Source: Candidatus Moraniibacteriota bacterium (GTDB lineage: Bacteria > Patescibacteriota > Minisyncoccia > Moranbacterales > GCA-2747515). Taken from it: a stretch of 64,000 nucleotides of DNA. The stretch lies in NCBI GenBank assembly GCA_002747515.1, contig PDPP01000017.1, positions 4,392 to 68,391 on the forward strand, in the 5' to 3' direction. Made by a program: the position numbers and the translations under genes. The first letter of the stretch is position 1. Every line of letters starts with the position of its first letter. Positions 345-37,565 of this stretch are shown piece after piece. A model generated the notes under the pieces. That model was not told the DNA's origin. It searched no databases and worked only from the letters and a program-made list of their open reading frames with translations.

Positions 345-3020
345 ATGAAAAAATTGCACGATATTATTACACATCAAAGAACTTTATATGCACTTGCATT
401 TATTTTTACATTGATTTTTGTGGGTGTGATGCATGGATATAATATGAATCATTATCCATATTATGAAAGTGATGAAGGTACATATATTTCGCAGGCATGG
501 TCAGTTATAAATATGGGGGAATTTACGCCATATACTTATTGGTACGATCATCCACCGATGGGATGGGTTTTTTTAGCTGGTTGGATTCAAATGTTGGGTG
601 GAGATTTTTTTCAATTTGGCACATCAGTTGATACATTTCGTGTGTGTATGCTTATGGTGCATATTATATCAACAGCGCTTATATTTTATATCGTGCATCG
701 TGTGACAAAAAATATTTTTGCAGCAATTTTTGCTGGCGTGATATTTTCTATTTCTCCACTTGAAATTTATTTTCAGAGACGTGTGCTTTTAGATAATATT
801 ATGATTATGTGGCTTTTGTTTTCTATTGCAATTCTTTTTGTGAAAAAAATATCTTTGCGACATATTTGTGCTTCAGGTATTTTTTTTGCACTTGCTGTTT
901 TGACAAAAGTGACAGCTGTGATGTTTGGTCCAGTTATTTTGGGATATATTATTTTGTATAAAACAAAAATTTCTCGTGTTTTTCGCACAACAATATGGTT
1001 GTTGGTTTCTATCATGTCTACATCATTTTATATCCTTTATGCATTTTTACGTGGTGAATTTTTCCCAGCAAAAAATGGTGAACATGTCAGCTTCATTGAA
1101 GCATTGCAATTTCAAATGTCTCGTAAAGGTGCTGATGTGCATTTTTGGGAGTATGGAAGTGATTTTTACTTTGCACTTGAAAGCTGGATGAATAAAGATA
1201 TATATTTTATTATAATTGGCGCAATTATTATTGTATTGAGTATTATTGTTGCGATACGTTTTAAAAATATTCGTTTTTTCTTAATAGCATTTTTATTGTA
1301 TTTTGTATTTTTGATTCGCGGTGGTGTTGTCATTAATTTTTATATTTTGCCTTTGTTTCCATTCTTTGCAATGATTGTTGCAATTATGTTTTATGATATT
1401 TCTACACTTTTTTGCAAGCGAGAGGGCACACGTGCTATGGTCATGTTTGTTCCTTTTCTTGCTGTGTGCATATATTATGGATTTTATGGACCACGTATTC
1501 ATTTTTTACGTGATGAAACAACACCACAGTCAAATGCAATTGAGTGGATAAAGAAAAATTTACCAAATGACAGTGCAGTAATTATCGATAGCTATGCATT
1601 GGTAGATATCCGTGATCCACACAACATTAATGATAAGACATTTCCAAATGCGGATTGGTTTTATAAGATTAATCGTGACGTTGCAATTCGTGATGAAAAA
1701 TATCATAATATGTGGCAAAATTTTGACTATATTGCATTGACACATGAGATGCTCAAACAAATTGAATTGGATTCACATTCTTTGGTACGTGATGCATATC
1801 GTAATTCGTTGCCACTTGCAAAATGGTTGGGTGATAGAGAGACGTATGTTAATGAGCAAAAATTTCGTACAACAAATGGAGATTGGGCGATGATATTTCG
1901 TGTTAATGATGTGCATCATGCACAACTTTTAGATTCATGGGAATCATATCGCAGTACATATATTAATTTTGATGGAGCTAATTATGGTCAAGTTATTGAT
2001 CCAGCAACAAATACCACAACATCTGAAGGGCAATCGTATGCGATGTTGCGATCTGCATGGATGAATGATCATGAAACATTTCTTGCTGCGTGGTTGTGGG
2101 CAAAAAATCATTTACAAAATCGTGTTGGCGATAAGTTGTTTTCATGGCAATGGAAAGATGATGCTGTTGCAGATAATTCAAATGCAACAGACGCAGATGA
2201 GGATATTGCTCTCGCGCTTTTGTTTGGGTATAAATTGTGGGATGAAGAGCAGTATCTTACAGAGGCAAAAGTAATCATCAATGATCTTTGGGAGCATAGT
2301 GTTATTAAAATTAATGGAAGGTATTACTTTTTGCCAATGCATGAGAGAGATGCTGATAAATGGAGCGGATATTTATTTAATCCATCATATATTTCACCTG
2401 CACATTATCGTATTTTTGCAGAAGTTGATCCAAAACATGATTGGGAACAATTAGCAACAGATTCATACAAAACACTCAATGAAATTGGTGAACGTTATGA
2501 TAATAAAATTTATTTACCAGCTGATTGGTATTTCATTGATAAAAAATATGGGAGATTTTCTACAGCAAATACATATTTTAATCGTAATGTAAACCATTTT
2601 AGTTTCGATGCTTTTCGTGTGTTGTGGCGCGTTGCTTTGGATGCGCAGTGGTTTGACGCAAAAGATGCACATGAATATTTGACACATACAGCAGAGTTCG
2701 TAGATGCATATTATAAAAAAAATGGAAGAATGCCAATGATCTTGAGTAAAAATGGCATACCAATTAATGATAGTCATGCATTGTCAACTGATGTAGGATA
2801 TGCGATTAGTATGCTTTATGGAGAATCAACAGATCATGCACATGAATTTTTTGAAAAGTATGTTTATTCAGTTTATGATGTAGAACGTGCATTTTGGAAT
2901 GAAGGTACAAATTATTATGATGAGAATTGGGCTTGGTTTGGAACTGGGGTGTTTTATAATAATTTGTCAAACATATGGGAAATCAATGTTTTTCGTGATG
3001 ATAATGATATAACTCTATAA
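345..3020 (+). CDS. Fusion protein: N-terminal GT-C fold (PMT/ArnT-like, GT39/GT83-type) polytopic glycosyltransferase domain plus C-terminal glycoside hydrolase family 8 domain
   Basis: The N-terminal ~430 aa has many TM helices, and the first loop carries a DE motif (YPYYESDEGTYISQAW) typical of GT-C enzymes. The C-terminal domain carries GH8 hallmarks TSEGQSYAMLRS and ATDADEDIALALLFGYKLW, consistent with the PROSITE-like GH8 signature A-[ST]-D-[AG]-D-x2-[IM]-A. Confidence 0.6.
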   Translation: MKKLHDIITHQRTLYALAFIFTLIFVGVMHGYNMNHYPYYESDEGTYISQAWSVINMGEFTPYTYWYDHPPMGWVFLAGWIQMLGGDFFQFGTSVDTFRVCMLMVHIISTALIFYIVHRVTKNIFAAIFAGVIFSISPLEIYFQRRVLLDNIMIMWLLFSIAILFVKKISLRHICASGIFFALAVLTKVTAVMFGPVILGYIILYKTKISRVFRTTIWLLVSIMSTSFYILYAFLRGEFFPAKNGEHVSFIEALQFQMSRKGADVHFWEYGSDFYFALESWMNKDIYFIIIGAIIIVLSIIVAIRFKNIRFFLIAFLLYFVFLIRGGVVINFYILPLFPFFAMIVAIMFYDISTLFCKREGTRAMVMFVPFLAVCIYYGFYGPRIHFLRDETTPQSNAIEWIKKNLPNDSAVIIDSYALVDIRDPHNINDKTFPNADWFYKINRDVAIRDEKYHNMWQNFDYIALTHEMLKQIELDSHSLVRDAYRNSLPLAKWLGDRETYVNEQKFRTTNGDWAMIFRVNDVHHAQLLDSWESYRSTYINFDGANYGQVIDPATNTTTSEGQSYAMLRSAWMNDHETFLAAWLWAKNHLQNRVGDKLFSWQWKDDAVADNSNATDADEDIALALLFGYKLWDEEQYLTEAKVIINDLWEHSVIKINGRYYFLPMHERDADKWSGYLFNPSYISPAHYRIFAEVDPKHDWEQLATDSYKTLNEIGERYDNKIYLPADWYFIDKKYGRFSTANTYFNRNVNHFSFDAFRVLWRVALDAQWFDAKDAHEYLTHTAEFVDAYYKKNGRMPMILSKNGIPINDSHALSTDVGYAISMLYGESTDHAHEFFEKYVYSVYDVERAFWNEGTNYYDENWAWFGTGVFYNNLSNIWEINVFRDDNDITL

Positions 3021-3240
3021 GCGTATGAAAAAAAATATAAGTCAATACATACTTTACGTGAAAAAAAACTTGCGTAGCAGTATAAAAAATATATGGAATC
3101 ATGATAGAGTTTCTTCTTTTATAAAAAAAAGAAAAAAGCAGATGTACGTCATATATAAAAAATGTGCGAATCAATGTGTATGTAAAAAACAGAAATTATG
3201 TGATGTTGTGAATAAAAAAATACGTGACACGTATCAAGGT

Positions 3241-5910
3241 ATGCGTGAGTATACATGGAAACAGTTTATGCGTGATTTACGTGCAATTCCGCGATCAATG
3301 TGGGTAAATATTGGCGTGCTACTTTTTCTTATGATTATTGTAATTGTGGCACATACATATAATTTTTTTGCTTATCCTTATTATGAAAATGATGAAGGGA
3401 CATATATATCACAAGCACATGCATTGATTACACAAGGCAAACTTTCACCCTATGTGTATTGGTATGATCATGCGCCAGGTGGATGGATCATTATTGCATT
3501 TTTTGCCAAGATTACAGGAGCTCTTTTTGCATTTGACACATCCGTGAATTTTGGTCGTGTTTTGATGCTTGGTTTTCATATTTTATCAGCAATGATGATC
3601 TATGTTATCGCAAAACGCTTGAGTAAAGGTTATGTAGTTGCAATTATTTCAACAATTATTTTTGCACTTTCTCCACTTGCAATTTATTATCAGAGACGTG
3701 TTTTGCTTGATAATATGATGACGACGCTTGTATTGTGTGCCATAGCAATTCTTTATAAAAAAAGAATTACGATGAATTGGATTATTGCAAGTGCTATACT
3801 TTTTGCAAGTGCTGTATTGGTCAAAGAAACGGCGTTAGTTTTTTTGCCGGCACTGTTGATTGGTGTGTGGCAGAGACGTAAGGAGATATCGTGTAAATGG
3901 GTCAGTGGGAAATGGTTGATTGTTGTTTGTGAGGTGATGGCACTTTATCCGTGGTATGCATTTGTGCGTGGAGAGTTATTTGATGCGCAGGGTGGAGGTG
4001 ATCATGTAAGTTTGTTGGGCACATTGTCATGGCAATTATCTCGTACGGGTTCTGATATTGCATTTTGGCACAAAGGCAGCGAGTTTATGAATGGTGTTAT
4101 GGATTGGTTGTATCATGATCCATATATTATTATCGCAGGATTTCTCACTGGCATGTTGGTGGTTGTGTGGAGTTTGGGACGTAAGGACTTGCGTGTTATT
4201 TCGCTTGGTATGATTTTTTTCTTTTTTTATTTATTGCGAAGTAATATTGTATTAAATTTTTATATCGTACCACTTATTCCTTTCCTCGCTCTTTCTATTG
4301 CATTGATTGTTGAACGATTGGCGCGGTATATTGCAGATGGGTATCAAAAACGATTTGTTTTTACGAGTATGATATTTGTACTTATTGTTGTGGTTGCGAT
4401 GGTGTTGCCTACACAAAAACATTTTATGCTCAATGAAACACAAGCACAAATTGATGCCGTGCATTGGGTTAAAAAACATGTACCTACTTCTGCAAAAATT
4501 GCTATTGATGATTATATGTATACAGATTATCATGATGCGCGATTTGGTAATGGTAAAGTGTTTAATCATGCAGATATTTTCTGGAAGATTGAATCTGATC
4601 CACAGGTGCGCAATGATGTGTACAATAGCGATTGGCGCACAATCAATTATGTTGTAGGTAGTAGCACATTTGATACACATCGATCACATGGACAATTAGA
4701 ATTTGTGGGAGAAGCTGCGAGCAGTGCAGTTGAAATAGTAAAATTTGTCTCTGATGATACAGCAGATGCATATCAGACACGTATTTTAAAAGTTGATCCT
4801 GATATGCCAGTGGATATTACTTATGCACACAGTGATGAAATTACGGATCAGTTGTATCGTGCTTTGCGTTCGTATAAAAAATTCTTTTTTCGGACATACG
4901 GACAAATCGTTGATCCAGATACATCTCTCACAACTTCTGAAGGGCAATCGTATGCGATGTTGCGATCTGTATGGGTGGATGATAAAGAAACATTTGATGG
5001 TGTATGGGAATGGACACAAGATCATCTCCAATTTCGTATAGGCGATAATCTGATTTCGTGGAAATGGGCGTTGGACAAATTGGAAGATTCAAGCAATGCA
5101 ACAGATGCAGATGAGGATATTGCGCTTGCACTTCTTTTTGCGTATGCGCAATGGGGTGATGAAAGATATCTTACAGATGCAAAAAAGATTATTGATGATA
5201 TTGGAGATTATGCAGTTGTGGAAATCGCTGGGAAAAATTATGTACTTTCGTCACATTGGAAGATTATTGAACAAACAGATGGGTTTTTACTTAATCCTTC
5301 TTATCTCGCACCTGCACATTATCGTATTTTTGCAGAAGTTGATCCAAAACATGATTGGCAAAAAATTGCACGTGATTCGTATGACGTGCTTGCACGGGCA
5401 AGTCATTTGGAAGGAAATGTTACAGGTTTACCTGCTGATTGGGTGCTCGTAGATAAAGAGACGGGAGAATTGTCTAGTGCACAGGCATATTTTGATTATG
5501 ATGTGGATAAGTTTAGTTTTGATGCTTTTCGTGTGTTGTGGCGTGTGTCATTGGACTATCAGTGGTTCAATTCATTGAAAGCACGTACATATTTGGATAG
5601 TGTGAATACGTATTTGATTGAACAATATAAAAAAGAAAAAACACTGCCTTCAGAAATAGCATCAGATGGCACGGTAATTGCAAAAGATGCAAGGTTGGCA
5701 GTTGATGCGGGATATCTCGCTGCATTTATGATAAAGAGAGATGCACTTTTGGCAAAAGATTTTTTTGAAAAACAATTTGTACAAAAATATAATGATAGTG
5801 GTGAGTATTGGGGTGATGATAAATACAATTATTACGATGCGAATTGGGCATGGTTTGCGACTGCGATGTATAACGGTAATATGAAAAATCTTTTTGCAGT
5901 TTCTGAATAA
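3241..5910 (+). CDS. Tandem paralog of the previous gene: GT-C (PMT/ArnT-like) membrane domain fused to a GH8 domain
   Basis: Domain order and motifs match the upstream gene (YPYYENDEGTYISQAH; TSEGQSYAMLRS; ATDADEDIALALLFAYAQW). The ORF is open from 3025, but 3025-3240 is A-rich, lysine-coding and low-complexity, so ATG 3241 (MREYTW...) is preferred as start. The start remains uncertain. Confidence 0.55.
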   Translation: MREYTWKQFMRDLRAIPRSMWVNIGVLLFLMIIVIVAHTYNFFAYPYYENDEGTYISQAHALITQGKLSPYVYWYDHAPGGWIIIAFFAKITGALFAFDTSVNFGRVLMLGFHILSAMMIYVIAKRLSKGYVVAIISTIIFALSPLAIYYQRRVLLDNMMTTLVLCAIAILYKKRITMNWIIASAILFASAVLVKETALVFLPALLIGVWQRRKEISCKWVSGKWLIVVCEVMALYPWYAFVRGELFDAQGGGDHVSLLGTLSWQLSRTGSDIAFWHKGSEFMNGVMDWLYHDPYIIIAGFLTGMLVVVWSLGRKDLRVISLGMIFFFFYLLRSNIVLNFYIVPLIPFLALSIALIVERLARYIADGYQKRFVFTSMIFVLIVVVAMVLPTQKHFMLNETQAQIDAVHWVKKHVPTSAKIAIDDYMYTDYHDARFGNGKVFNHADIFWKIESDPQVRNDVYNSDWRTINYVVGSSTFDTHRSHGQLEFVGEAASSAVEIVKFVSDDTADAYQTRILKVDPDMPVDITYAHSDEITDQLYRALRSYKKFFFRTYGQIVDPDTSLTTSEGQSYAMLRSVWVDDKETFDGVWEWTQDHLQFRIGDNLISWKWALDKLEDSSNATDADEDIALALLFAYAQWGDERYLTDAKKIIDDIGDYAVVEIAGKNYVLSSHWKIIEQTDGFLLNPSYLAPAHYRIFAEVDPKHDWQKIARDSYDVLARASHLEGNVTGLPADWVLVDKETGELSSAQAYFDYDVDKFSFDAFRVLWRVSLDYQWFNSLKARTYLDSVNTYLIEQYKKEKTLPSEIASDGTVIAKDARLAVDAGYLAAFMIKRDALLAKDFFEKQFVQKYNDSGEYWGDDKYNYYDANWAWFATAMYNGNMKNLFAVSE

Positions 5911-5971: not shown

Positions 5972-7330
5972 ATGACGAAAATAAAACGTAAAGCATTAAT
6001 GTACTTCATTATTGTGGCTTTGCTTCTAATTGTTTTGGGGAAAGTTTTTTTTGGAACTAATAATACTTCCAATCTTTTTCTATACATGTATGGCATCACA
6101 GTTACAATGATTTTATGTGTTGTATTTTTTATGGTTTTTACGAGTTATTGTGATCCATATGAAATTGCAAAAGAAGAATTGCAAAAAAAAGATAATAATA
6201 AGAAAAAACCTTTGTTTGTCACATGTATGGTAGCTGCGTGGAATGAGGGTGATGGGATTGTGTCATGTATTGAGTCAATGATTGCGCAAACATATCAACA
6301 TCGAGAAATTATTTTTGTTGATGATTGTAGTGATGATAACACAAGAGAGATAATTGAGAGATATGAAAAAAAAGGTCTCATAAAGGGGATTTATCTTGAT
6401 AAAAATGTAGGAAAAAAATGTGCTCTCGGCAAAGCGATGCGCATAGCAAAAGGAGATATATTTGCATTTTCTGATAGTGATTCATTGTGGAAAGAAGATG
6501 CATTGGAGCGAATCATGGCGATTTTTATGCACGATAAAAATGTAGGAGGTGTGAGTGGACATTGTCGCGCACAAAATGCACAAAAAAATGTGATTACACG
6601 GGTACAAGATTCATGGTATGAGGGACAATTTGGCATTCGCAAAGCGTTTGAAAGTATTTTTGGGGCGATTACATGTGTCTCTGGTCCACTTGCTGTTTTC
6701 CGTCGTGAAGCAATTTATAATTATATTCCTGCGTGGGAAAATGATAAGTTTCTTGGACAAGAATTTCGTTTTGCGACAGATCGCACATTAACTGGTTTTG
6801 TATTAGGTGCACCATATATTGGGAAAAAACTGAAGAAAAAGTATGCACAATCTTCATTTGTGAAAGAAATTGATTATCCAGAAAAAGAATGGAAAATTGT
6901 ATATTGCAAATCTGCACGATCATGGACGATTGTGCCAGATACACTGTCTCGTGTTTTCAGGCAACAGGTGCGATGGAAAAAAAGTTTTATTAGAAATACT
7001 ATCTTTACAGGTAGTTTTTATTGGCACAAGCATTTTTTAACAGCCTTTGTGTATTATATGCATATAATATTTGTTGTTATCGGTCCTTTTGTGGTTTTTC
7101 GTCATTTGGTGTATATGCCACTTCATGGAAATTGGTGGACAGTGCCTTTGTATCTGTCAGGAATTCTTCTTGTAGGGTTTTCATTTGGATTGGCATATCG
7201 GTTGGATAATCCTGATGATGATCAATGGGTGTATCGACCGCTTATGAGTTTGTTTTCAACACTTGTTTTGTCTTGGATATTGTTCTATTCATTATTTACT
7301 ATTAAAAAAATGCAATGGTCACGAAATTAA
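5972..7330 (+). CDS. Processive family-2 glycosyltransferase (PgaC/IcaA/BcsA/NodC-like polysaccharide synthase), membrane-embedded
   Basis: N-terminal TM helices followed by a GT2 catalytic core. The core shows DDCSDD (a D,D,D-type motif), DSD, and the QQVRWKKS (QxxRW) motif characteristic of processive beta-glycan synthases, then C-terminal TM helices. Confidence 0.65.
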   Translation: MTKIKRKALMYFIIVALLLIVLGKVFFGTNNTSNLFLYMYGITVTMILCVVFFMVFTSYCDPYEIAKEELQKKDNNKKKPLFVTCMVAAWNEGDGIVSCIESMIAQTYQHREIIFVDDCSDDNTREIIERYEKKGLIKGIYLDKNVGKKCALGKAMRIAKGDIFAFSDSDSLWKEDALERIMAIFMHDKNVGGVSGHCRAQNAQKNVITRVQDSWYEGQFGIRKAFESIFGAITCVSGPLAVFRREAIYNYIPAWENDKFLGQEFRFATDRTLTGFVLGAPYIGKKLKKKYAQSSFVKEIDYPEKEWKIVYCKSARSWTIVPDTLSRVFRQQVRWKKSFIRNTIFTGSFYWHKHFLTAFVYYMHIIFVVIGPFVVFRHLVYMPLHGNWWTVPLYLSGILLVGFSFGLAYRLDNPDDDQWVYRPLMSLFSTLVLSWILFYSLFTIKKMQWSRN

Positions 7331-8940
7331 GTAAGAAAGAATTGTGTGCATATTTGGTTATTGTTTGTGTAACAATTATTGCTGTAGGAAAGTATTATTT
7401 TGAAGATGCGACTCGAATAGCAGATGCATACGATATGTATAAATTATTTGAGAATAAGCATGCACAAAGCAAAAAGAAAATTGTAAAAGAAAATCTTGTA
7501 TTGCGCTATGATGTTTCACGAGGAGAGTGGGTTGTGTATAACAAAAACGGTTCAGAAAGCGTTTTATTTCTAGCAAAAAAAAGTACAGATGGATTTATTG
7601 ATATTATACCTACACAAAAATTAACAGAAGATCATGTTGTGGCACATGTATATAATGTTGGCACATATTATGGTAACAGTGCATATGCGATTACAACAAA
7701 TATTCCTTTTGATGTTTCTCAATCATCATATGATCTTTTTGCACAAGAGGATGTGATACCAATTATTGGATATCATTTTGTTATACCAGATAAACAGCCA
7801 ATCACATATCCATCTTTGGAAATTCACAAAACAGATTTTCGTAGGCAAATTCAATATATGACAGAACAAGTTGGTTGTCAGTGGTTTACTTTTTCAGAGA
7901 TTGTTGACAATTTTATTAATAAGGGTCGTAAAGTTCCACGTAATGCATGTGTGATTAGTTTTGATGATGGGAAGCGAAATAATTATACAGAAGCATTTCC
8001 TATTTTGGAAGAATTTGGTGCGAAAGCAACATTTTTTGTGATCACGGATCGTGTGGGTTCATCAGATGCTTATATGACATGGCGTCAAATCAATGATCTT
8101 TATAAACATGGTCATGAAATTGGTTCACATTCTGTAGCATCGGGAAGCTTGGTTAAGGATTTAACTAAGGGAGGAGAAGATCTATTGAATCATGAATTAA
8201 AAGATTCGCTTTTGCGATTGCAAAAAAAAGGATTTGAGACAAAAACATTTGCTTATCCACACGGTGAATGTAATGATCGCATAGTACAAGGTGTAAAGGA
8301 AGCGGGGTATAGTGCTGCACGTGCAATTCGTGTGCCACAAATTTGGCGAGATAAACGCACAACTACAATTGGATATGATGACACATTTAAATGGCACATG
8401 CATTATATCAAGACAGAAGAAATGACACTGGAACAAATTGGTGATGCAATTATGTATGATGGATGGTGGCAGTGTGAAAATGGATATAGTGATAATGCAG
8501 AAAAATCTGGAAAAAATACACTTACATTTAATGCAAAAACGAAACCAACAGATCGCAGTTTTGGCGTAACTGTATTATCTGCAAATGAAAAAATGCATCA
8601 AGATTTTTTCCTTGAACAATCAGGTACATATACGATTGATATATCAGTTGGCATATCACAATCAGTATACAAAAAAATGGAAAATATCAATGATTTTATA
8701 AATGTTTTTGTGAATGATAATATGTATACATTGATTAATGATCCACATGATTGTGTGGATGTGAAAAATTGGAAATTTTGTACATATGAAATTACTGCAG
8801 ATATGAAACATGGAAGACAAAAAATTACAATGCAAGCAACATCATGTAAAATACTTTTAGATCGATTTCGTGCGTATCGTACACTTTCACAAAAAGAAGA
8901 ATACCCACTTACAATACTGTATAAAACTGACATAAAATAA
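7315..8940 (+). CDS. Polysaccharide deacetylase (CE4, NodB homology domain) with an extra C-terminal domain
   Basis: NodB-domain motifs are present: VISFDDGKRNNYTEAFPILEEFGAKATFFVITDRVG ... HGHEIGSHS. The gene overlaps the upstream GT2 gene by 16 nt, indicating an operon. N-terminal TM anchor. Confidence 0.65.
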   Translation: MVTKLSKKELCAYLVIVCVTIIAVGKYYFEDATRIADAYDMYKLFENKHAQSKKKIVKENLVLRYDVSRGEWVVYNKNGSESVLFLAKKSTDGFIDIIPTQKLTEDHVVAHVYNVGTYYGNSAYAITTNIPFDVSQSSYDLFAQEDVIPIIGYHFVIPDKQPITYPSLEIHKTDFRRQIQYMTEQVGCQWFTFSEIVDNFINKGRKVPRNACVISFDDGKRNNYTEAFPILEEFGAKATFFVITDRVGSSDAYMTWRQINDLYKHGHEIGSHSVASGSLVKDLTKGGEDLLNHELKDSLLRLQKKGFETKTFAYPHGECNDRIVQGVKEAGYSAARAIRVPQIWRDKRTTTIGYDDTFKWHMHYIKTEEMTLEQIGDAIMYDGWWQCENGYSDNAEKSGKNTLTFNAKTKPTDRSFGVTVLSANEKMHQDFFLEQSGTYTIDISVGISQSVYKKMENINDFINVFVNDNMYTLINDPHDCVDVKNWKFCTYEITADMKHGRQKITMQATSCKILLDRFRAYRTLSQKEEYPLTILYKTDIK

Positions 8941-9021: not shown

Positions 9022-10281
9022 ATGATTAACAAATTTTTGCAAGATAAATTTATCAAAGATAACGCTGTGTTTTTTGTAGGTTCAATAATCGTAGCTATTT
9101 TGAATTATCTCTATCATCCTGTGATGAGTCGGATGATGAGCGTTGAAGATTTTGGAGAAGTACAGACACTTATTTCTTTGACATATCTTACAGGAATACT
9201 TAGTGTAATATTTGGGACGATCGCAACAAACATCGTTGCACACATAAAAGATCTATCAGTAAAAAAGCACACAGAAATTTTGTCGCAGCTAGCTACTCTT
9301 GCATTATATGTTACTGGTTTTTTTGCATTAGCTCTACTTGTGCTTAGTCCATATTTGCGTGATGTGTTGCAATTTAGGTCAATAGCTTCCTTTTTGCCTT
9401 TGATTTTGATTATGTTAGTAGGTGTGCCAATGATTTTCTATAACGCATATTTTCGTGGCATAAAACAATTTGACGTGGCATCAATCACAGGAATTATTAT
9501 GTCTAGCGGAAAGATTATCTTTGCAATACTTTTTGTTTTTCTTGGTTTTCGTGTTTTTGGTGCAATAAGTGCACTTGCACTTGCAACACTTTGCTCATTG
9601 CTATATGCAATGCGTAAAGCACGTGGCACATTTGTATTGAATTGGGAAGGTAAATTAACATGGACACCAGAAATGAAAAGAGAACTTTCATATGGAATGC
9701 TTATTTTCTTTTCTTTAGGATATATCACATTTTTATATACATCAGATGTGATTATGGTGAAATATTTTTTTTCACCTGAAATAGCAGGAGTGTATAGTGG
9801 AGTTGCAACAATTGCACGTATCATTTTCTTTGCGACAGCATCTGTGGCAGGCGTCCTTTTGCCAACGATAAAGATGACCGCTAAATATGAAGAAAATATT
9901 GCAGTTTTGAAAAAAGCTTTTATGATCATCTCACTTATGGGAGTAGGAGCACTTGGAATTTTTTTTCTTTTTCCAAAATTTATTATAACTGTGCTAATTG
10001 GAGAAAAATATCTATCGCTAACAAACTTACTGCCACTTGCAGGATTGTATATTTTCCTAGCCTCTGTGACAAATATTTTGTATTCTTATTCACTGGCGTT
10101 GCGAGACAAAAGGCTAATTACAACTTCATTGATTGGCTTTTTAGTTATCATTGGTTTAATTTGGTGGCATCATGATTCACCTAGAGCGATTGTAATAGAC
10201 TATATCATAGGTGCAGCAATGACAATTATTGTCACTTTTGTAGTGCTTTTGTTTTCAAAAAGAAAAGAAGTTAGATTGTAA
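9022..10281 (+). CDS. Polysaccharide biosynthesis protein / oligosaccharide flippase (Wzx-like, MOP superfamily)
   Basis: The protein is 419 aa with about 12 predicted TM helices, and the composition and length are typical of Wzx/PST family transporters. It sits within a glycosyltransferase cluster. Confidence 0.5.
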   Translation: MINKFLQDKFIKDNAVFFVGSIIVAILNYLYHPVMSRMMSVEDFGEVQTLISLTYLTGILSVIFGTIATNIVAHIKDLSVKKHTEILSQLATLALYVTGFFALALLVLSPYLRDVLQFRSIASFLPLILIMLVGVPMIFYNAYFRGIKQFDVASITGIIMSSGKIIFAILFVFLGFRVFGAISALALATLCSLLYAMRKARGTFVLNWEGKLTWTPEMKRELSYGMLIFFSLGYITFLYTSDVIMVKYFFSPEIAGVYSGVATIARIIFFATASVAGVLLPTIKMTAKYEENIAVLKKAFMIISLMGVGALGIFFLFPKFIITVLIGEKYLSLTNLLPLAGLYIFLASVTNILYSYSLALRDKRLITTSLIGFLVIIGLIWWHHDSPRAIVIDYIIGAAMTIIVTFVVLLFSKRKEVRL

Positions 10282-10285
10282 ATTT

Positions 10286-11242
10286 ATGGATAAAAAAATA
10301 AAAGAAAAGAAAGTGATATCAATTATCATCCCAGCATATAATGAAGTGGAAAATGTTTTACGCATCTATAAAGCACTTAAGAAAGAATGGAAAAAATCAA
10401 TGAAAAAGTTCTATGATTATGAAATTATTTTTATTGATGATGGAAGCACGGATGAGACGATAAAGGAAATTGAAAAAATTGCACATACAGATGAACAAGT
10501 ACGTTTTGTGGAATTTTCACGAAATTTTGGTAAGGAAATCGCAACAACTGCAGGAATTCATGTGTGTACAGGTGATGCGTGTATCATAATTGATGCAGAT
10601 TTACAACACCCAGTAGAATTAATTCCAGAATTTATTGAAAAATGGTGTAATGGATTTGAGGTGGTTATTGGTGTTCGAAAAGAAAGTAAAAGTGATAGCT
10701 GGATCAAAAAGATTGGTGGAAAGGTATTTTATAAAATTATGCGATTTATCTCTGATGTGCCAATCATCTCTCATGCAACAGATTATCGATTACTTGACCG
10801 TAAGGTAATTGATGCGTTTAATGAATTGCCAGAGCGAAATCGGATGACACGTGGATTGATTGACTGGCTTGGATTTAAGCGAGGCGTCATTTATTTTGAA
10901 GCAAATGAACGGGTGTGTGGCACAGCAAGTTATTCTACATGGAAGTTGTTTCGTCTTGCATTTACAAGTGTCATCTCTCTCAGCATGATGCCGCTGCGAT
11001 TTGCTGGATATCTGGGTGTGATTATTATGTTTGCTTCAGGAGCACTTGGCATTTTTATGTTTGTTGATCGTTATTTTGCTGATTGGGGATTTCATTTTTC
11101 AGGCTCAGCGATTCTTGCTGATATCATTCTCTTTCTTATTGGTATCGTATTAATATCTTTGGGATTACTCGCATTTTATATCGGACACATCTATAACGAA
11201 TGTCAGGGAAGACAAATGTATATTATAAGAAATAAAAAATAG
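10286..11242 (+). CDS. GT2 polyprenyl-phosphate glycosyltransferase (DPM1/ArnC/GtrB-like)
   Basis: Motifs ISIIIPAYNEVENV, FIDDGSTDET and DADLQHP are followed by two C-terminal TM helices, the classic DPM1/GtrB architecture. It would be a functional partner for GT-C enzymes. Confidence 0.65.
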   Translation: MDKKIKEKKVISIIIPAYNEVENVLRIYKALKKEWKKSMKKFYDYEIIFIDDGSTDETIKEIEKIAHTDEQVRFVEFSRNFGKEIATTAGIHVCTGDACIIIDADLQHPVELIPEFIEKWCNGFEVVIGVRKESKSDSWIKKIGGKVFYKIMRFISDVPIISHATDYRLLDRKVIDAFNELPERNRMTRGLIDWLGFKRGVIYFEANERVCGTASYSTWKLFRLAFTSVISLSMMPLRFAGYLGVIIMFASGALGIFMFVDRYFADWGFHFSGSAILADIILFLIGIVLISLGLLAFYIGHIYNECQGRQMYIIRNKK

Positions 11243-11379
11243 TTCATATTATTTTTACAAAGATAGGAATATAAAGAGTGAAGAATTTTATATTGTCATT
11301 CCAGCGCAAGTGGGAATTTAGTAAATATAAAATAAAAAATATTTTAAACAATATTGCAGAAGCAAGTTATAAAACATTT

Positions 11380-12954
11380 ATGAGAATTCTTTGGTTTACA
11401 TGGAAAGATAAGACGCATCCACTTGCAGGTGGTGCAGAGGTTGTCGCGAGTGAGCTAGGCAAACGTCTTGTATCTGATGGTCATGAGGTTGTTTTTATTG
11501 TTGGTGGATATAAAAAAAATAAAAAAGCTAGATCAAAAGAAATAATTGATGGTTACACAGTGATCCGTGTCGGTGGACGTTGGAGTGTGTATTGGCAAGC
11601 ATATAGATATTACAAAAAACATCTCAGAGGTTGGGCAGATGTTGTGATTGATGAGATGAATACGATGCCATTTTTCACAAAATATTACATAACAAAAAAT
11701 AAAAACACTCCTACTTGTCATTCTCGTGAAAGAAGAAATCCAAAAGATAAAAAAGATACACCGTGTCATTCTCGTAAAAGCAGAAATCCAGAATATGAAG
11801 AAAACACCTTTTGTCATTCTCGTAAAAGCAGAAATTCAGAACATGAAGAAGCTACCTCTTGTCATTCCCGCGCAGGCGGGAATCCAGAGAATAAAGATGT
11901 CGTTAAAAATCAAAAAAAATCCTTTTGTCACAATCACGAAGCAGAAAATTCACAAAATAAAAATCCACGCCAGTTTCTATTTGTTCACCAACTTTGTAGA
12001 GAGATTTGGTTTTATCAGATGTTTTTTCCACTCAATATTATCGGTTATGTGTTAGAATTTTTTTATCTGCGTTTACTCAATGATCAAGAAGTGATTACCG
12101 TGTCAGAGAGTACAAAAAAAGACCTCATGCGATATGGATTTAAAAAAGATCGTATTCACATTATTTCCGAAGGGATTCAATGTGAACCACTTGCACAATT
12201 ACCTGCAATACATCATGCAAAATATGACACGCCGACTATTCTCTCACTTGGTGCAGTGCGTGCGATGAAGCGTGCAGATCATATTGTCACAGCATTTAAC
12301 ATCCTCAAGTCCACCTCCTCCCACTCTCACAAAAACCTTTCTCATCTCCACGACAACTCTTGTCATTCCCGCGCAGGCGAGAATCCAGAATATGAAGAAG
12401 CTACCTCTTGTCATTCCCGCGCAGGCGGGAATCCAGGGAATAAAGATGTCGTTAAAAATCAACAAAAAACCTGTCAATCTATTCACAAAAATAACAATCT
12501 AAAATATAAACAACAAATCAAAAATGCAAAACTCATCATCGCAGGAGACATACATGATCCATATGCACAAAAAGTACTGCATAATGTCGCAAAATCTCCG
12601 TACAAAAACGATATCACTGTCCTCGGGCGAGTCTCTACAGAAAAAAAATGGGAACTCATGCAAAAAAGCCACCTCATCGCAGTTACCAGTATCAAAGAAG
12701 GATGGGGACTCATCGTCACAGAAGCAGCGAGTCAGGGCACACCGGCAGTAGTTTATGATGTAGATGGACTCAGAGATGCAGTGGAGTGGGGTGATGCAGG
12801 ATACATGACAAAAGACAACACGCCAAAGGCACTGGCAAATGAAATGATACAAGCATTGCAAGATGAAGATAAATATGAGAGAATACGCCAATATGCATGG
12901 CACAAATCACAAAAACTTACTTTTGAAAAAAGCTACAAAGACTTTTTTCTGTGA
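11380..12954 (+). CDS. GT4 glycosyltransferase carrying two in-frame tandem arrays of a degenerate palindromic repeat (possible pseudogene or repeat-tolerant enzyme)
   Basis: The N-terminus MRILWFTWKDKTHPLAGGAEVV and the C-terminus GWGLIVTEAASQGTPAVVYDVDGLRDAVE match a GT-B/GT4 fold. The ORF is open from GTG 11278, but 11278-11379 is itself a degenerate repeat copy, so ATG 11380 is preferred. The interior encodes repeated CHSR(K/A)(S/G)(R/G)NPE peptides derived from the repeat DNA. Confidence 0.55.
   Translation: MRILWFTWKDKTHPLAGGAEVVASELGKRLVSDGHEVVFIVGGYKKNKKARSKEIIDGYTVIRVGGRWSVYWQAYRYYKKHLRGWADVVIDEMNTMPFFTKYYITKNKNTPTCHSRERRNPKDKKDTPCHSRKSRNPEYEENTFCHSRKSRNSEHEEATSCHSRAGGNPENKDVVKNQKKSFCHNHEAENSQNKNPRQFLFVHQLCREIWFYQMFFPLNIIGYVLEFFYLRLLNDQEVITVSESTKKDLMRYGFKKDRIHIISEGIQCEPLAQLPAIHHAKYDTPTILSLGAVRAMKRADHIVTAFNILKSTSSHSHKNLSHLHDNSCHSRAGENPEYEEATSCHSRAGGNPGNKDVVKNQQKTCQSIHKNNNLKYKQQIKNAKLIIAGDIHDPYAQKVLHNVAKSPYKNDITVLGRVSTEKKWELMQKSHLIAVTSIKEGWGLIVTEAASQGTPAVVYDVDGLRDAVEWGDAGYMTKDNTPKALANEMIQALQDEDKYERIRQYAWHKSQKLTFEKSYKDFFL
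11716..11887 (+). repeat. Four tandem 48-nt units (28-nt palindromic core TGTCATTC(C/T)CG...GAAATCCAG plus a 20-nt linker) inserted in-frame in the GT4 gene
   Basis: Cores start at 11716, 11764, 11812 and 11860, an exact 48-nt (16-codon) period. The first three are A/T-mutated variants and the fourth is near-consensus (tgtcattcccgcgcaggcgggaatccag). Confidence 0.8.
12361..12436 (+). repeat. Second in-frame insertion in the same GT4 gene: two 48-nt-spaced copies of the palindromic core
   Basis: The cores are tgtcattcccgcgcaggcgagaatccag (12361) and tgtcattcccgcgcaggcgggaatccag (12409). Low-complexity flanks on either side. Confidence 0.8.
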
Positions 12955-12987
12955 TATTAGAAAATGTAAAAAAATAATATATTTTTT

Positions 12988-13797
12988 ATGAAAGAACCAC
13001 TAGTGTCAGTTGTTGTGCCAACATATAATTCAGAAAAGTTTTTGAAATTGTGTTTAGACTCAGTGCAGAATCAGACTTATAAAAATATTGAATTAATTGT
13101 GGTAGATAATAATTCAACAGATGGAACAAAAGAAATTGCAAAAAAATATACCAGTAAAGTTTTTAATAAAGGTCCTGAAAGGAGTGCTCAAGTAAATTTT
13201 GGTGTAAAACATGCAAATGGCGTGTATGTATATAAAATTGATTCTGATTTTGTTCTAGAAAAGAATGTCGTTCAACAATGTGTAGATGAAATTTCTAATA
13301 ATTTTGATGCAATTGTTGTTCACAATTCTCCAGATATTAGAGTGAGTTGGATAGCAAAAATTAGAAAATTTGAAGTTGATATGTATAAATATGATATTAC
13401 ACATTCATCGGCACGATTTGTTAAAAAAAGTGTATATCAAAAAATTGGGGGATTTAATAGTGCAATCACTGCAGGCGAGGATTATGATTTTCAAAATAAA
13501 TTAAATAGAAGTGGTTATAGGACTGGATTCATAGAAGCTGAAGCTTTACATTTGGGAGAGCCTACAAATTTTTTTGCACATATGAAAAAATATTATGACT
13601 ATGGAAAAGATTTTGTAAATTATAAATCTGAAAACGAAACAGAATCAAAAGAGCAATTAGGATTTATTAGAAAGGTGTATGTAAAAAATTGGAAAAAATT
13701 TTTATGTCATCCAATACTTTCTGCTGGTTTCATTTTTTATAATATTTGTAAATTTGGATGTGGAGGGGTCGGTTTATTGATAAATAGCATGAAGTAA
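12988..13797 (+). CDS. GT2 glycosyltransferase (soluble, single-domain)
   Basis: VSVVVPTYNSEKFLKLCLDSVQNQTYKNIELIVVDNNSTDGT matches the typical GT2 N-terminal signature with the DxD region. Confidence 0.6.
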   Translation: MKEPLVSVVVPTYNSEKFLKLCLDSVQNQTYKNIELIVVDNNSTDGTKEIAKKYTSKVFNKGPERSAQVNFGVKHANGVYVYKIDSDFVLEKNVVQQCVDEISNNFDAIVVHNSPDIRVSWIAKIRKFEVDMYKYDITHSSARFVKKSVYQKIGGFNSAITAGEDYDFQNKLNRSGYRTGFIEAEALHLGEPTNFFAHMKKYYDYGKDFVNYKSENETESKEQLGFIRKVYVKNWKKFLCHPILSAGFIFYNICKFGCGGVGLLINSMK

Positions 13798-13831
13798 AGT
13801 TAAATAAGTTTTAAATGATAATTTATTTACT

Positions 13832-15016
13832 TTGATTAAAAATAGTATGTGTATATATTTTTTTGAATTACCAAAAACAGGACATAATATAAGTGGTGGC
13901 GAAAATTGTTTACTTGAAAATATTAAATATTTTAGTAAAAAGTATCGATGTATAATTATTACAACTGATTTGGCAGAAAAAATTTTCAAAGAAAGGCTGG
14001 GTGGTAATTTAAAAAATGTAGAATATAGAACAATTTCAACGAGTGATAAGGAGGGAAATTTAAATATATTTTTTTCTTATGTTTTAAGAACTGTAAAAGC
14101 AATTTTTTTGGTTAGTAGAATTAAATTAAATAATCAAGATGTTTTAATATGCAATTCAGATTTTTTTCCAAATTCTATTCCTTTCTTTATTTTTGCAACA
14201 ACGAAAAAAAGTGTAAAAATTTTTTATTGGTGGAGAGTTGTGGCTCCCTCTATTTTTAAGGGATTTGAGGGACAATATACGGGTCGATATCAAATTCCGA
14301 AAATTAATGTTGTTCATTATAAAATAAATCAATTATTATACATATTATTAACTAAAAAAAAGGGTATAATAATAACTCATGCCCCAGCATATTATGATTA
14401 TCTTTCAAACAAGTTCGCAAAAAATCAAATCAGGGTCATTAAACCCTATGGAGGCCATGAAAAAGTCGTTTTTAATTGTAAAGAAAAGATAATTGATATT
14501 ATATGGATGGCTAGATTTCAAAAATTGAAAGGTCTTGATAATTTTATAAATATTGTAAAAAAAATTCAAAAAGATATCCCCAATATAAAAGTGGTTATTT
14601 TGGGAAGTGGGAATAAAAAGGAGATAAATAAACTCAACGAAGCAATATTAAAAAATGGTCTTAGTAAAAATATTAAATGCAAAGGATTTGTTTTTGGACA
14701 ACAAAAGAGTGATTTTCTTTCGCAGTCGAAAATTTTTGCGATGACAAGTTATTTTGAAAGTTACGGACAGGTTATTGTGGAATCTATGGCACACGGCCTT
14801 CCTATTGTTTCATATGACCTTCCTACGTTTACAGTTTTTTCTCGTGGAATCATAAAAGTTCCAATTCTTGATGATGATAGTTTTTCTAAAGAAATCATAA
14901 AATTGTTATCAGATAAAGAAAAATTGCAAAAGTTTTCGGAAGACGCAAAAGAATTCTCATCGGGATTTTCTTGGGATAAAACAAATTCTGCAATCGAATC
15001 AATCATTAATTGTTAA
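13832..15016 (+). CDS. GT4 glycosyltransferase
   Basis: The C-terminal GT4 motif is FAMTSYFESYGQVIVESMAHGLPIVSYD, with the EX7E-like region. The gene is very AT-rich. Confidence 0.55.
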   Translation: MIKNSMCIYFFELPKTGHNISGGENCLLENIKYFSKKYRCIIITTDLAEKIFKERLGGNLKNVEYRTISTSDKEGNLNIFFSYVLRTVKAIFLVSRIKLNNQDVLICNSDFFPNSIPFFIFATTKKSVKIFYWWRVVAPSIFKGFEGQYTGRYQIPKINVVHYKINQLLYILLTKKKGIIITHAPAYYDYLSNKFAKNQIRVIKPYGGHEKVVFNCKEKIIDIIWMARFQKLKGLDNFINIVKKIQKDIPNIKVVILGSGNKKEINKLNEAILKNGLSKNIKCKGFVFGQQKSDFLSQSKIFAMTSYFESYGQVIVESMAHGLPIVSYDLPTFTVFSRGIIKVPILDDDSFSKEIIKLLSDKEKLQKFSEDAKEFSSGFSWDKTNSAIESIINC

Positions 15017-18000
15017 TAATTATGAAATTACAAGATAAGGATAATATCATAAATATAATTGTGATAATATTTTTTTTGTTTTTACCATACTTTATATTCA
15101 AAGGAAATTTTCATATTGGTGGTGATGATTCACATCTATTTTATATATATCCGCAATTATGGATTGAAAATGTTTCAAATTCTACATGGACAAGTTATTC
15201 ATCTTTAGGATTATTTAGCAATCAATATTATTATAATCCATTGTTATATATTTTGTCATTTTTACACATTTTTTTTATTTCGAGTTATGTAATTCAAAAC
15301 ATTATATTCTCAACAATTTTTATTGGTGGTTTTGTATTTTTGAAGAATTTTTTATATGTAATTATTCCGCAGTCTAGAAGATATATTGTCGAAATCAATC
15401 TCAGTGGTTTTGTCTATATTTTTTCTCCAATTTTATTGATAACCCCTCTTAGAGCGTATTTGGCAAATATTTGGTTAATTCCTTTAATTCCATTACTTGC
15501 TTTTTTGTTTTCTAAATATTATAAAACAAATCATTTCAAGTATAACACTCTAATTGGAATTGTATCTTTCTTTTTTGCACTAGCTTTTAATGCTGTTCCG
15601 TGGCTTTTGGGAGTTATTCTGCCACTTATTTCTGGGGTTTTAATTGGGGTGTTTTTTTTGAAGAAGGCAAGAGCATATAATCTTCTTAAAAAATTTTTTT
15701 TATCTGGGTTGTTAATTGGTTTAACTCAATTATTTTGGCTATTCCCCTTTTTTATGTCAGTTATGTCGTCACATAATTCTGTGGGATCAAAAGTTTTTAA
15801 TGATGAATTTGAAAATACATTTATAAAGGAAGTCTTAGCAACTTCTGCTAACACAACGATTTTAGATCCTTTAAGGAATTTTTTCCATATCGGACTACAG
15901 GAAAATTTTAAGTGGTCAACTTTACAATTATATTCTAATTGGTATTTAAAAATTGATTTTCTTAATTATATTTTTCCAATTATAATATTTTTGGGAATTA
16001 TATTATCTTACAAGAATTTGAAAAGGGTTTATCTAGTTTTTTTATTTCCATTTATCGTGTCCTTGTTTTTATTTACGGTTAAGATTGGTTTATTGAAAGA
16101 CTTCTTTATGATATTGGGCAATATTCCTGGATTTGTTATGTTTAGAAATTTTTATGATAAATTTTCTATAGGCTATGTTTTTTTCTTTTCAATAATTATT
16201 TGTTTTTCATTAATTTTTTTAAAAAACAGTTTAAATAGATCAGGTATCTATAAATTAATATTAATCGTGATAGCATTTGTTGTTTTGTATGATTCAAAAC
16301 CGTTAATTTTTGGGGATGTTTTTAATGATAATATAAGAGGAACAAATTCTGTTGGTCAAAATATTATAATTCCGCAAGAATATTTAAATTTTATGGATCA
16401 TGTATCTAAAGTTGTTCCACATTCATCGAATATTTTTGATGTTCCATTTGGTAATTCTGCGTTTACTATTATTGTTGGAGAATCTGGCCATTCTGTTTTT
16501 TCTGGTAAGTCTCCTGTAAAGTTATTTAGTGGCATTAATGATTTTAGCGGAAAGCTTTCATTTGATAAAGAAACTTCTAAAATTATTTATAAATTTATCA
16601 GAGAAAGAAAATATTATAAACTAAGAAATCTATTAAGTATTTATAATATTAATTATGTTTTTGAAACAAATAATATTCCTTTTGAAATTTTAAATTCGCA
16701 TCTCTATTCTGAAAAAATTTTAAAAAAGCAAGATGAAATTTTTAGGGATAATATGTATGGTGATTTAATTTTTTCTAGTATAAATAAAAATTATAATTTA
16801 TATTCTTTAAAGAAAAATGAATCAGGAAATTCTCAAATAATAAATTTTCCCAAAAATATATATTTGTATGAAGATGTCATTGATCAGAGAATTAGAGAGT
16901 CTTTAATGAGTTTGGTGAACTCAGAAAATGTTTTTGTTAGAGAGAAATTACATGGCATTAATAAATTAAAAAAAATTGAAAAATTAACAGAGGACTCCGA
17001 GTATGAAGATCATAAGCGTTCATCTATTTTGATTGTAGATGAATTGAATGTTGGGCTGTTGTCTTTTGAAGAAAGTGATAAAAATATGTATATATCAAAT
17101 GTATATGATTATATTTTTGATAAAAAAAATTCGAAAGTATTTCAAGAAAATATTTCTTCAGATTCTTTAATTGAAATTAATCAAAAGATTTATAATATAA
17201 AAGACGTTGATTATATTCCGATAGATACCGAATCTTCAAAAATTAAACTGTATACAAAATCTTTAGACAATATACTCGAATCAAGTTTTGATATTTATAA
17301 AAATTGGAAAAAAGGTGATTGTAATGCGCATGATGGCAATCGCGAAGTTTTTTTTAACTTTGACGTTGAAAAAAACAGTCTTGTTTTAAAATCTCAAAAT
17401 AATCATAATGCATGTACTTATTCTAATATTGATATTGAAAAAAATGAAATTTATTCTTTAGTTTTTGATTATGAAACTAATAATGATAGAATTACTGTTT
17501 TTATTGAGTTATCAGATGGTGAATTTATTAAACGTGAAGAAAAAGTTAATCAAAAAGGACAATTTAATCTAACATTTAAAAATCCTATTGATGATGATAT
17601 AAAATTATATTTATATTCAGGAGAATCAAGTGATAAGAGTATCACTGAGTATTTTAATGTTAGGTTATTCAAATATAATTTTTTAAAAGAATTTGATGAT
17701 ACAGATATTGCAATTGATAATTTACATTCTCGTTATATTCCAGGTAATTCTCTGAGTAAAAGAATGAAAATTATATCTCCAGTTGTAAATAATGTTGATG
17801 AGTTTTCAAATTCATTTGAAAACTGGAAAAAGGGTGATTGTGGTGCAATTAATTTGGAAAAAAAAGTTTTTTTTAACAATATTTCAAATAATGAAATAGA
17901 ACTAAAATCTAGTGATGGGCATAATGCTTGTATGCATAAGTCAATTTCAATTGATAAGAATTATAAATATGATTTATCTTTTCAATACATGAATAAAGAT

Positions 18001-29282: not shown

Positions 29283-29462
29283 CTTTTTTCTCCTTTTGTT
29301 TTTTTGATGAAAATATACATTAACATGACATTGTATTTTTGTCAATGGATTTTGCAGGCAATACCATGATATACTTGGCACAGTCGTTAAATAGAAAGAT
29401 TCTTGTTCACAAGATTTTGTTTTTAAGTGAATGAGTTATGTCTAAAATGTAATTATAAATAT

Positions 29463-31289: not shown

Positions 31290-31341
31290 TAGTATAATTA
31301 AAAAATATCATTTTTCATTTTACATTTAAATATTTTAAAAT

Positions 31342-36984: not shown

Positions 36985-37040
36985 TCTTTGCCCTTTGTTC
37001 TTTTTTCACAAAACTGTGAGAGAAGTGCAAAGGGTTTTTT
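36985..37040 (+). terminator. Probable terminator hairpin after the 219-aa gene
   Basis: ccctttg ... caaaggg stem followed by ttttttatt. The loop is long, so strength is uncertain. Confidence 0.35.
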
Positions 37041-37224: not shown

Positions 37225-37244
37225 GAAAAAATCGGAGGTGTGAA

Positions 37245-37544: not shown

Positions 37545-37565
37545 ATTATGAAATGGAGGTGTGAA

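Follow-up and report, generated by a model that had tools for sequence, protein, structure and literature searches.

Organization of the tandem genes

A stretch of 64,000 nucleotides (nt) from Candidatus Moraniibacteriota bacterium (assembly GCA_002747515.1, contig PDPP01000017.1, positions 4,392–68,391) was analysed. It is called the window, and all positions refer to it. Near its start two co-directional genes on the + strand, W1 (345–3020, 891 residues) and W2 (3025–5910, 961 residues), are separated by a spacer of 4 nt. Each encodes a fusion of a GT-C glycosyltransferase domain with a C-terminal domain of glycoside hydrolase family 8 (GH8). A preliminary description, made from the sequence alone, had proposed this arrangement of the two open reading frames (ORFs), and Pfam finds both domains in this order in each of them. 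The C-terminal end of an upstream processive GT2 synthase, cut by the window edge, occupies positions 2–340 on the same strand (listed ORF 23–340).

In W1 the GT-C membrane domain comprises residues 1–385 (345–1499). It is followed by an extracytoplasmic α/β domain (residues 385–520) and by the (α/α)6 barrel of the GH8 domain (residues 523–891; 1911–3017). The corresponding parts of W2 are residues 91–462 (GT-C) and about 606–961 (GH8; about 4840–5907). The first 90 residues of W2 (3025–3294) form a basic, cytoplasmic extension with 25 Lys or Arg residues, which W1 lacks. The 1007-residue orthologue of W2 at the closely related locus L001 also has a long N-terminal extension with a similar start; the orthologous gene of locus L002 has none.

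The proteins share 40% identity across 870 residues and are thus diverged overall, as originally noted. The tandem pair is also present in L001 (a 1.5-Mb contig from the European Nucleotide Archive, 78% identity), L002 and L004. W1 is referred to as the type-1 and W2 as the type-2 paralogue. In a neighbour-joining tree the type-2 genes form a clade that is sister to the clade containing the type-1 genes, so the duplication predates these genomes. Judged by the divergence of about 40% identity, W1 and W2 derive from an old duplication. The two proteins may act together as a putative heteromer.

The membrane domain has a GT-C fold

The N-terminus of W1 matches PMT_2 (PF13231) with 35.3 bits (cut-off 26.1) and that of W2 matches PMT (PF02366) marginally, with 23.4 bits (cut-off 22.7). 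An AlphaFold2 model of W1, computed with 77 homologues as input, has a predicted local distance difference test (pLDDT) value of 92.1 and a predicted template-modelling (pTM) score of 0.85. The N-terminal domain modelled alone reaches a pLDDT of 92.4. Foldseek matches of this domain with E ≤ 0.02 are exclusively GT-C enzymes (STT3, ArnT, Pmt4, ALG12, AglB, AftD, PglB and AftB), with template-modelling (TM) scores of 0.5–0.6 and no more than 12–13% identity to any solved GT-C enzyme. The fold matches include PDB entries 7bvc and 6p25, which bear on the comparison with Emb and Pmt enzymes made below. According to the model, the domain has a GT-C fold that is near no solved family. Both Pfam and the fold comparison agree with the original assignment.

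Neither protein matches the NCBIfam model of ArnT (GT83) or any other NCBIfam GT-C model, and Pfam detects no MIR domain of the PMT (GT39) architecture in W1 or W2. Identity to the solved ArnT and Pmt structures is 12–16%. A relation of W2 to the "AZOBR_p60025 cell surface glycopolymer formation protein" was rejected as too weak (NCBIfam, 28 bits; cut-off 150).

The predicted topology comprises 11 transmembrane helices. The positive-inside pattern and the model place the N-terminus inside and the C-terminus outside, which makes the GH8 domain extracytoplasmic, in line with the periplasmic location proposed before. The first outer loop of W1 is acidic, 63 residues long and contains the motif YPYYESDEGTY, in which Asp43 and Glu44 are invariant in 54 of 54 sequences. 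Altogether, ten residues (Asp43, Glu44, Asp68, His69, Arg99, Arg145, Asp150, Lys188, Glu238 and Arg260 in W1 numbering) show no variation among the same 54 family members. All ten map to the outer membrane face. Judged by the GtrB/ArnC-like GT2 and the GtrA in operons of relatives, the donor may be a polyprenyl-phosphate-linked sugar.

The GH8 domain retains its catalytic residues in both copies

The preliminary description assigned the C-terminal domains to GH8. Pfam, a sequence search of the PDB and a fold search concur. Glyco_hydro_8 (PF01270) scores 127.6 bits for W1 (E = 7e-37) and 148 bits for W2 (E = 4e-43) at a cut-off of 24. The domain adopts the (α/α)6 fold with TM-scores of 0.81–0.86 to CelA, CMCax and BcsZ. 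Its best sequence match in the PDB is CelA (E = 1e-25), and xylanases and chitosanases rank below cellulases among the GH8 matches.

Glu561 of W1 (the acid), the Asp cluster Asp616/Asp618/Asp620 and Asp755 (the base) align with Glu95, Asp152 and Asp278 of CelA, of which Asp152 belongs to the signature ATDADxDIA. The acid and base of W2 are Glu639 and Asp833. The Asp at the base position of both proteins is of the GH8a/c type. By alignment, both W1 and W2 keep the complete catalytic set of an inverting β-1,4-glycanase of the CelA/BcsZ type.

A chitosanase reading, prompted by a neighbouring pair of genes for a NodC-like GT2 and a family 4 carbohydrate esterase (CE4), is disfavoured. Among the fold matches those to chitosanases are weakest, and none is obtained by sequence. 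In addition, the base is of the Asp type, and the gene pair is found in just 3–6 of 82 loci.

Among 49 relatives the catalytic residues are intact in 27. Five carry Asn at the base position, which also occurs in active GH8b enzymes. The remaining 17 have lost the acid and/or the base (L004 gene 1, L006, L008, L015, L016, L021, L027, L029–L033, L036, L038, L040, L042 and L043). Examples are TTSQGQ in L016, the same change as in the engineered inactive CelA variant E95Q, and TTSSGQ in L004 gene 1. Overall, the acid or base is replaced by Gln, Ser, Ala, Val, Arg, Leu or Gly. The tandem pair of L004 combines a "dead" GH8 in copy 1 with a "live" one in copy 2.

Since 17 of 49 relatives have lost a catalytic residue, hydrolysis is not the core function of the family. 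The GT-C residues are invariant while those of GH8 vary; thus, the transferase is the conserved engine. The GH8 module always looks like a glycan binder, whereas only some versions are cutters. These losses and the invariance of the GT-C residues in 54 of 54 members would suit a GH8 domain that is mainly a recognition module for the acceptor, similar to a carbohydrate-binding module (CBM), with hydrolysis incidental or absent and the proteins acting as polymer-decorating transferases only. GT-C enzymes with C-terminal acceptor-binding CBMs do exist (PMC11127046). However, the copies of the window and the 27 intact relatives keep Glu561, Asp755 and the Asp cluster, and a further five have the Asn at position 755 that is familiar from active enzymes. 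Moreover, where GH8 is exchanged for family GH3, a hydrolase and not a CBM takes its place, and the tracts of exact DNA identity described next lie on the catalytic motifs and preserve them. We therefore consider a mere binding role of the domain unlikely.

Exact DNA tracts and gene conversion between W1 and W2

Four tracts are identical in both genes. The first (34 nt, 2022–2055 = 4936–4969) encodes the motif of the catalytic acid, SEGQSYAMLRS, and has the coordinates given in the preliminary description. A tract of 17 nt (2193–2209 = 5107–5123) encodes ADEDIA of the GH8 signature and is by itself within chance. The longest (50 nt, 2395–2444 = 5309–5358) encodes the motif PAHYRIFAEVDPKHDW; it had been recognized before, with coordinates that were 1–2 nt off and out of register. 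The fourth (23 nt, 2607–2629 = 5521–5543) encodes DAFRVLWR, the motif of the catalytic base. All four lie on the + strand at one constant offset of 2914 and are located on the four most conserved motifs of GH8.

Because of this location, the protein constraint must be removed before the tracts are judged. When codons were redrawn from the usage of the window with both proteins fixed, a longest tract of at least 50 nt had a probability of 0.0002 and a second one of at least 34 nt was not reached (P = 0; 5000 trials). Permutation of codon pairs within amino-acid classes gave P = 0.0008 for the longest and 0.003 for the second longest tract. A permutation after Sawyer, as in GENECONV, was applied to the polymorphic sites of a codon alignment of six sequences. 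In this test W1 and W2 share runs of 19, 14 and 8 concordant sites. None of 10,000 permutations reached the two longer runs; the third has P = 0.005. Pairs of paralogues from different genomes, used as controls, were not significant in the same test. The tracts are thus longer than codon constraint on conserved motifs accounts for (P from below 1e-4 to 0.003).

Inside the tracts there is no difference between W1 and W2, whereas the respective orthologues in L001 deviate from them by 4–10 nt in three tracts and by 1 nt in the 17-nt tract. For the 34-nt tract, gene 1 of L001 differs from the W sequence by 6 nt and gene 2 by 10 nt. Directly outside the tracts the identity of W1 and W2 is 43–70% and that of the orthologues 68–85%. 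Some of the shared states are non-synonymous and specific to the genome: both W copies have FAE and RVLW, both L001 copies FAQ and RTLW. In the 50-nt tract W2 has a Lys where its orthologue has a Tyr. In the region 2607–2629 the two L001 genes match each other exactly, but their sequence is unlike that of W, which indicates an independent event and concerted evolution in both lineages.

Codon bias on invariant motifs, or an artefact of metagenome assembly, would also produce short identical stretches. The position of the tracts on the four best-conserved motifs would fit this, as would a codon identity at conserved residues that is raised throughout the genes (0.67 observed, 0.54 expected) and the origin of the sequence from a metagenome-assembled genome (MAG). 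However, the simulations already condition on amino-acid sequence and codon usage, and the polymorphic-site permutation leaves out the invariant sites. Further points against are the divergence of the L001 genes in three of the four tracts, the drop in identity directly beyond the tracts and the exchanges of Glu for Gln and Val for Thr between genomes. An independent assembly has an identical tract of its own at the same site, and in the window both ORFs are intact with distinct flanks. Both explanations are extremely improbable. A functional nucleotide element was rejected, as the L001 and L002 orthologues do not conserve the sequences of the tracts.

Quartet site patterns comprise 564 orthologous, 48 "conversion" and 31 "cross" sites, and the conversion sites cluster in the tracts; genome-specific codon drift could account for some of the 48. 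Taken together, tract statistics and orthologue comparison support short-tract gene conversion between W1 and W2, as had been suggested. Probably it was seeded where conservation of the motifs leaves enough identity for recombination. Of the two orthologues, the type-1 gene is slightly nearer to the W sequence of the tracts, a weak sign that conversion ran from W1 to W2.

The genes follow a processive GT2 synthase

In a tblastn comparison, positions 2–340 share 89% identity with residues 290–401 of the synthase half of an L001 protein (575–686 of 686 residues). This protein is a double GT2. Its N-terminal half is similar to GtrB and ArnC and resembles polyprenyl-phosphate-sugar synthases (ArnC, PgfS, AglJ, Dol-P-hexose transferase and PpgS). 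A processive, channel-forming membrane synthase with DAEDE, TED and QRTRW motifs makes up the C-terminal half; its best matches are PgaC/IcaA, CelA and NodC. GtrA and a FAD oxidoreductase (PRK07233) are encoded upstream of the double GT2 in L001, and GtrA upstream together with a GtrB-like GT2 is found in the closest relatives (L001–L004, L007, L008 and L016).

The PRK07233 protein (L001, 6601–7920, annotated as "hypothetical") has the fold of FAD-dependent amine oxidases and, in the closest relatives, is encoded between GtrA and the GtrB-like/synthase gene. Homologues are present in 12 of 82 loci. By analogy with DprE1, it could modify the lipid-linked sugar.

The neighbourhood was compared in 81 loci of relatives, with up to 10 kb on either side of the GT-C gene, and in the window (82 loci in total). 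Of 75 loci that could be assessed, 70 have a synthase-type GT2 gene no more than 1 kb upstream of the GT-C gene and in the same orientation. This linkage spans Patescibacteria, Chloroflexota, Dormibacterota and Actinobacteria, and the partner GT2 has TED and QRxRW motifs. No PilZ domain is detected in the partner synthase, and no BcsB was found. GH8 is fused to GT-C or encoded downstream in 61 of 79 loci. A MAG of the Chloroflexaceae has the synthase followed by a GT-C–GH8 fusion. Curtobacterium has an unfused operon of GT2 synthase, GT-C, DUF4397, GH8, sortase and a small GT2; in Curtobacterium sp. L1-20 it is located at about 1,566,100–1,574,100 of NZ_CP151473.1 (L073, 7806–15777). In the Curtobacterium locus L073 (11836–14937) the DUF4397 protein and the sortase are encoded beside or between the GT-C and GH8 genes. 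Their presence in Actinobacteria may point to a partner protein that is anchored to the wall where the system is unfused.

The fusion of a polyprenyl-phosphate-sugar synthase in cis to a processive synthase raises another explanation. The GtrB-like domain would make a polyprenyl-phosphate-sugar primer that the fused synthase elongates and exports; the GT-C domain would be a ligase that moves the chain en bloc onto an acceptor, either wall or lipid, and chain length would be set by GH8. The tight coupling of GT-C to the synthase, up to a triple fusion, fits this scheme as well. Precedents are the Salmonella O:54 synthase pathway, which uses a lipid-linked primer and ends in ligation by WaaL, and the old lipid-intermediate model of cellulose synthesis in Agrobacterium, which involves the GH8 enzyme CelC. 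However, a primer that leaves through the synthase channel would make the GtrA in the operon of the closest relatives unnecessary, the small GT2 is a separate downstream gene in Actinobacteria, and no candidate for the acceptor is evident. Lipid-primed synthesis with a GT-C ligase is thus judged quite improbable.

Distribution and fusions of the family

The preliminary description regarded the fusion as unusual. It is indeed uncharacterized, but it is not rare. A HMMER search of 1.84 billion representatives yielded 678 clusters of GT-C–GH8 relatives at 50% identity (E ≤ 1e-30), and a scan of one genome per species yielded at least 598 loci. Carriers are Patescibacteria, Chloroflexota and Dormibacterota, and Actinobacteria with separate genes. 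The fusion proteins of 13 loci cluster among Patescibacteria (L006, L008, L010, L011, L013, L019, L022, L026, L028, L034, L040, L041 and L045); their titles ("uncultured Gammaproteobacteria", "Pseudomonadales", "Bdellovibrionales") probably reflect mislabelled MAG taxonomy.

In five relatives GH3 replaces GH8 and two carry DUF5719. The variants are P0228, P0232, P0234, P0241, P0254, P0209, P0240 and P0246, which have the N-terminal domain of GH3 in place of GH8, DUF5719 or, in the case of P0209, a single polypeptide of GT2 synthase, GT-C and GH8. The NagZ signature was inspected in the GH3-fused P0232 (KHYPGGLG...NPH) with regard to the identity of the sugar and is ambiguous. Thus, the lipid-sugar synthase is found fused to the processive one, GT-C to the hydrolase, and the GT2 synthase to both GT-C and GH8. 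As Rosetta-stone fusions they tie all four activities into one pathway.

Patescibacteria are often episymbionts of reduced metabolism, and by sequence GH8 is most similar to CelA, a degradative cellulase. GH8 could accordingly be a membrane-tethered cellulase for foraging or for attacking the β-glucan of a host, with GT-C as an unrelated protein O-glycosyltransferase or membrane anchor. This is very unlikely: across phyla the genes almost always neighbour a processive synthase, up to a triple fusion, invariant catalytic residues do not suit a mere anchor, and the loss of GH8 catalytic residues in many lineages does not suit a nutritional enzyme.

Databases annotate the fusion automatically, e.g. 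as "endo-1,4-beta-D-glucanase Y / ArnT-like glycosyltransferase". The Actinoplanes gsf GtrA cluster (PMC13390465) is a different system that has neither GT-C nor GH8.

Proposed mechanism

With about even confidence, W1 and W2 are interpreted as extracytoplasmic subunits of a synthase-dependent β-glycan machine that decorate and trim the polymer outside the membrane. The GT2 synthase would polymerize and extrude a β-linked glycan, most likely a β-1,4-glucan because of the affinities of GH8. The GtrB-like domain would load a sugar on polyprenyl phosphate, GtrA would flip this sugar-lipid across the membrane and the GT-C domain would add the lipid-borne sugar to the emerging polymer. The fused GH8 domain would grip the chain and, in this organism, cut it for release, sizing or unjamming, as BcsZ does for cellulose. 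Conversion of the RecA type in short tracts, seeded in the most conserved GH8 motifs, would recently have made the four patches identical.

Coupled transfer and trimming of a glycan had been proposed from the fusion itself. Trimming is likely in this organism, but it is not universal in the family, as about a third of the GH8 domains have lost catalytic residues. The proposal was also incomplete, since a processive synthase accompanies the proteins in nearly all cases.

Several observations weigh against the proposed machine. Catalytic residues of GH8 are lost in 17 of 49 relatives, within well-aligned motifs, and hydrolysis is thus not the conserved core function. The window starts inside the synthase, and its GtrA and GtrB-like parts are taken from L001 (78–89% identical). 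GtrA was detected in 9 and a GtrB-like GT2 in 39 of the 82 loci. For every NCBIfam equivalog the score of the synthase is far under the cut-off (e.g. 47.7 bits for the CelA model with a cut-off of 699), and the protein is not identifiable as BcsA. Finally, searches of the literature for this system yielded neither a description nor biochemistry for members of the family.

Comparison with known systems

E. coli needs the hydrolytic activity of BcsZ to secrete cellulose, and its BcsG modifies this polymer using a lipid donor (PMC11379886). The GH8 domains of W1 and W2 share the (α/α)6 fold, the aligned catalytic Glu, Asp and Asp and the extracytoplasmic location with BcsZ, CMCax and CelA, and, as with BcsZ, a processive GT2 synthase is encoded alongside. 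However, BcsZ is a soluble periplasmic enzyme of diderm bacteria, whereas the GH8 described here is the C-terminal domain of a GT-C enzyme with 11 transmembrane helices, and its carriers are lineages with Gram-positive-like (monoderm) envelopes. The scores against the NCBIfam equivalog of BcsZ (NF008305) are 103.7 bits for W1 and 113.5 bits for W2, under the cut-off of 299; the domains are thus not orthologues of BcsZ. Moreover, PilZ is not detected in the partner synthase and BcsB was not found, as noted above.

Three-component systems (GtrABC, ArnC/ArnT, CsbB/YfhO, GacI/GacL and GT136) have in common with W1 and W2 a GT-C fold whose first outer loop is acidic and, in the operon of the closest relatives, the combination of a GtrB/ArnC-type GT2 with GtrA. 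Some of their GT-C members also have C-terminal acceptor-binding modules (PMC11127046). In contrast, the W proteins match no GT-C model of NCBIfam, the partner polymer is made by a synthase and not through Wzx/Wzy, an ABC transporter or the teichoic-acid route, a glycoside hydrolase stands at the C-terminus instead of a CBM, and synthase and GtrB-like GT2 form one polypeptide.

BcsG is similar in being a membrane-anchored enzyme with a lipid donor that modifies a polymer leaving its synthase, alongside a GH8 enzyme (PMC11379886). It belongs to the alkaline-phosphatase superfamily and moves phosphoethanolamine from phosphatidylethanolamine. Since fold and chemistry are unrelated, this is a functional analogy only.

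The putative W1–W2 heterodimer may be compared with paralogous GT-C pairs. EmbA/EmbB and yeast Pmt1/Pmt2 are paralogous GT-C heterodimers; embA and embB are adjacent genes, and the Emb proteins have C-terminal extracytoplasmic carbohydrate-binding domains. Donors and acceptors are different, however, and Emb and Pmt proteins have no hydrolase domain.

Other genes of the window

Directly downstream of W2, on the + strand, a second membrane GT2 synthase of the NodC/PgaC/chitin-synthase type (5972–7330) overlaps with a gene for a CE4 polysaccharide deacetylase similar to IcaB and PgaB (7315–8940). A homologue of this second GT2 is found in 6 of the 82 loci, and the pair is regarded as an accessory neighbour. 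The same layout is present in L008 and L026. The combination suggests a partly de-N-acetylated poly-GlcNAc as product.

A further glycan cluster (9022–18762) contains genes for a Wzx-like flippase (Polysacc_synt) and for GT2, GT4, GT2 and GT4 enzymes. It includes a protein of 1250 residues with CBM_4_9 and no other recognizable domain. Genes for GlmS, undecaprenyl-diphosphatase (BacA/UppP), RecO and a member of the phosphoglucomutase/phosphomannomutase family are located at 29427–32133, 39726–40469 and 53136–54479. They fit lipid-carrier-dependent glycan synthesis and recombination of the RecFOR type. Seven small ORFs on the + strand (63–132 residues; 36988–39280) lie between an unannotated ORF of 219 residues and recO and have no match in Pfam. 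Scans of the window for tRNAs and against Rfam found nothing.

Implications

Each domain family is known. What looks like new is the combination of synthase, GT-C and glycanase, with fusions, swaps of the hydrolase and frequent catalytic death. The trio, together with the fused lipid-sugar synthase, could represent a previously undescribed class of synthase-dependent envelope-glycan systems that is common to Patescibacteria, Chloroflexota, Dormibacterota and Actinobacteria. In such a class, GT-C could branch or cap the polymer with lipid-linked sugar at the exit of the synthase channel and a swappable hydrolase (GH8, GH3 or dead GH8) could hold and size the chain. Some Patescibacteria could use two ancient paralogues as a heteromer whose catalytic motifs are kept matched by micro-conversion. 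As a joint reading this is tentative, and the balance leans against all of its parts being correct together.

To our knowledge, there is hardly any experimental work on the envelope polymers of the Patescibacteria (Candidate Phyla Radiation), which make up a large share of bacterial diversity. The locus points to a surface-glycan machine that is conserved and probably important, and joins two pathways that are usually kept apart, namely synthase-dependent secretion and lipid-linked GT-C glycosylation. As the unfused set of genes is present in cultivable Actinobacteria (Curtobacterium, Frigoribacterium, Microbacterium and Arthrobacter), the hypothesis is genetically testable now. The versions with live GH8, dead GH8 and GH3 provide a natural experiment that addresses why glycan synthases come with cellulases. 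Furthermore, W1 and W2 provide a clean case of micro-gene-conversion limited to the catalytic motifs of otherwise saturated paralogues.

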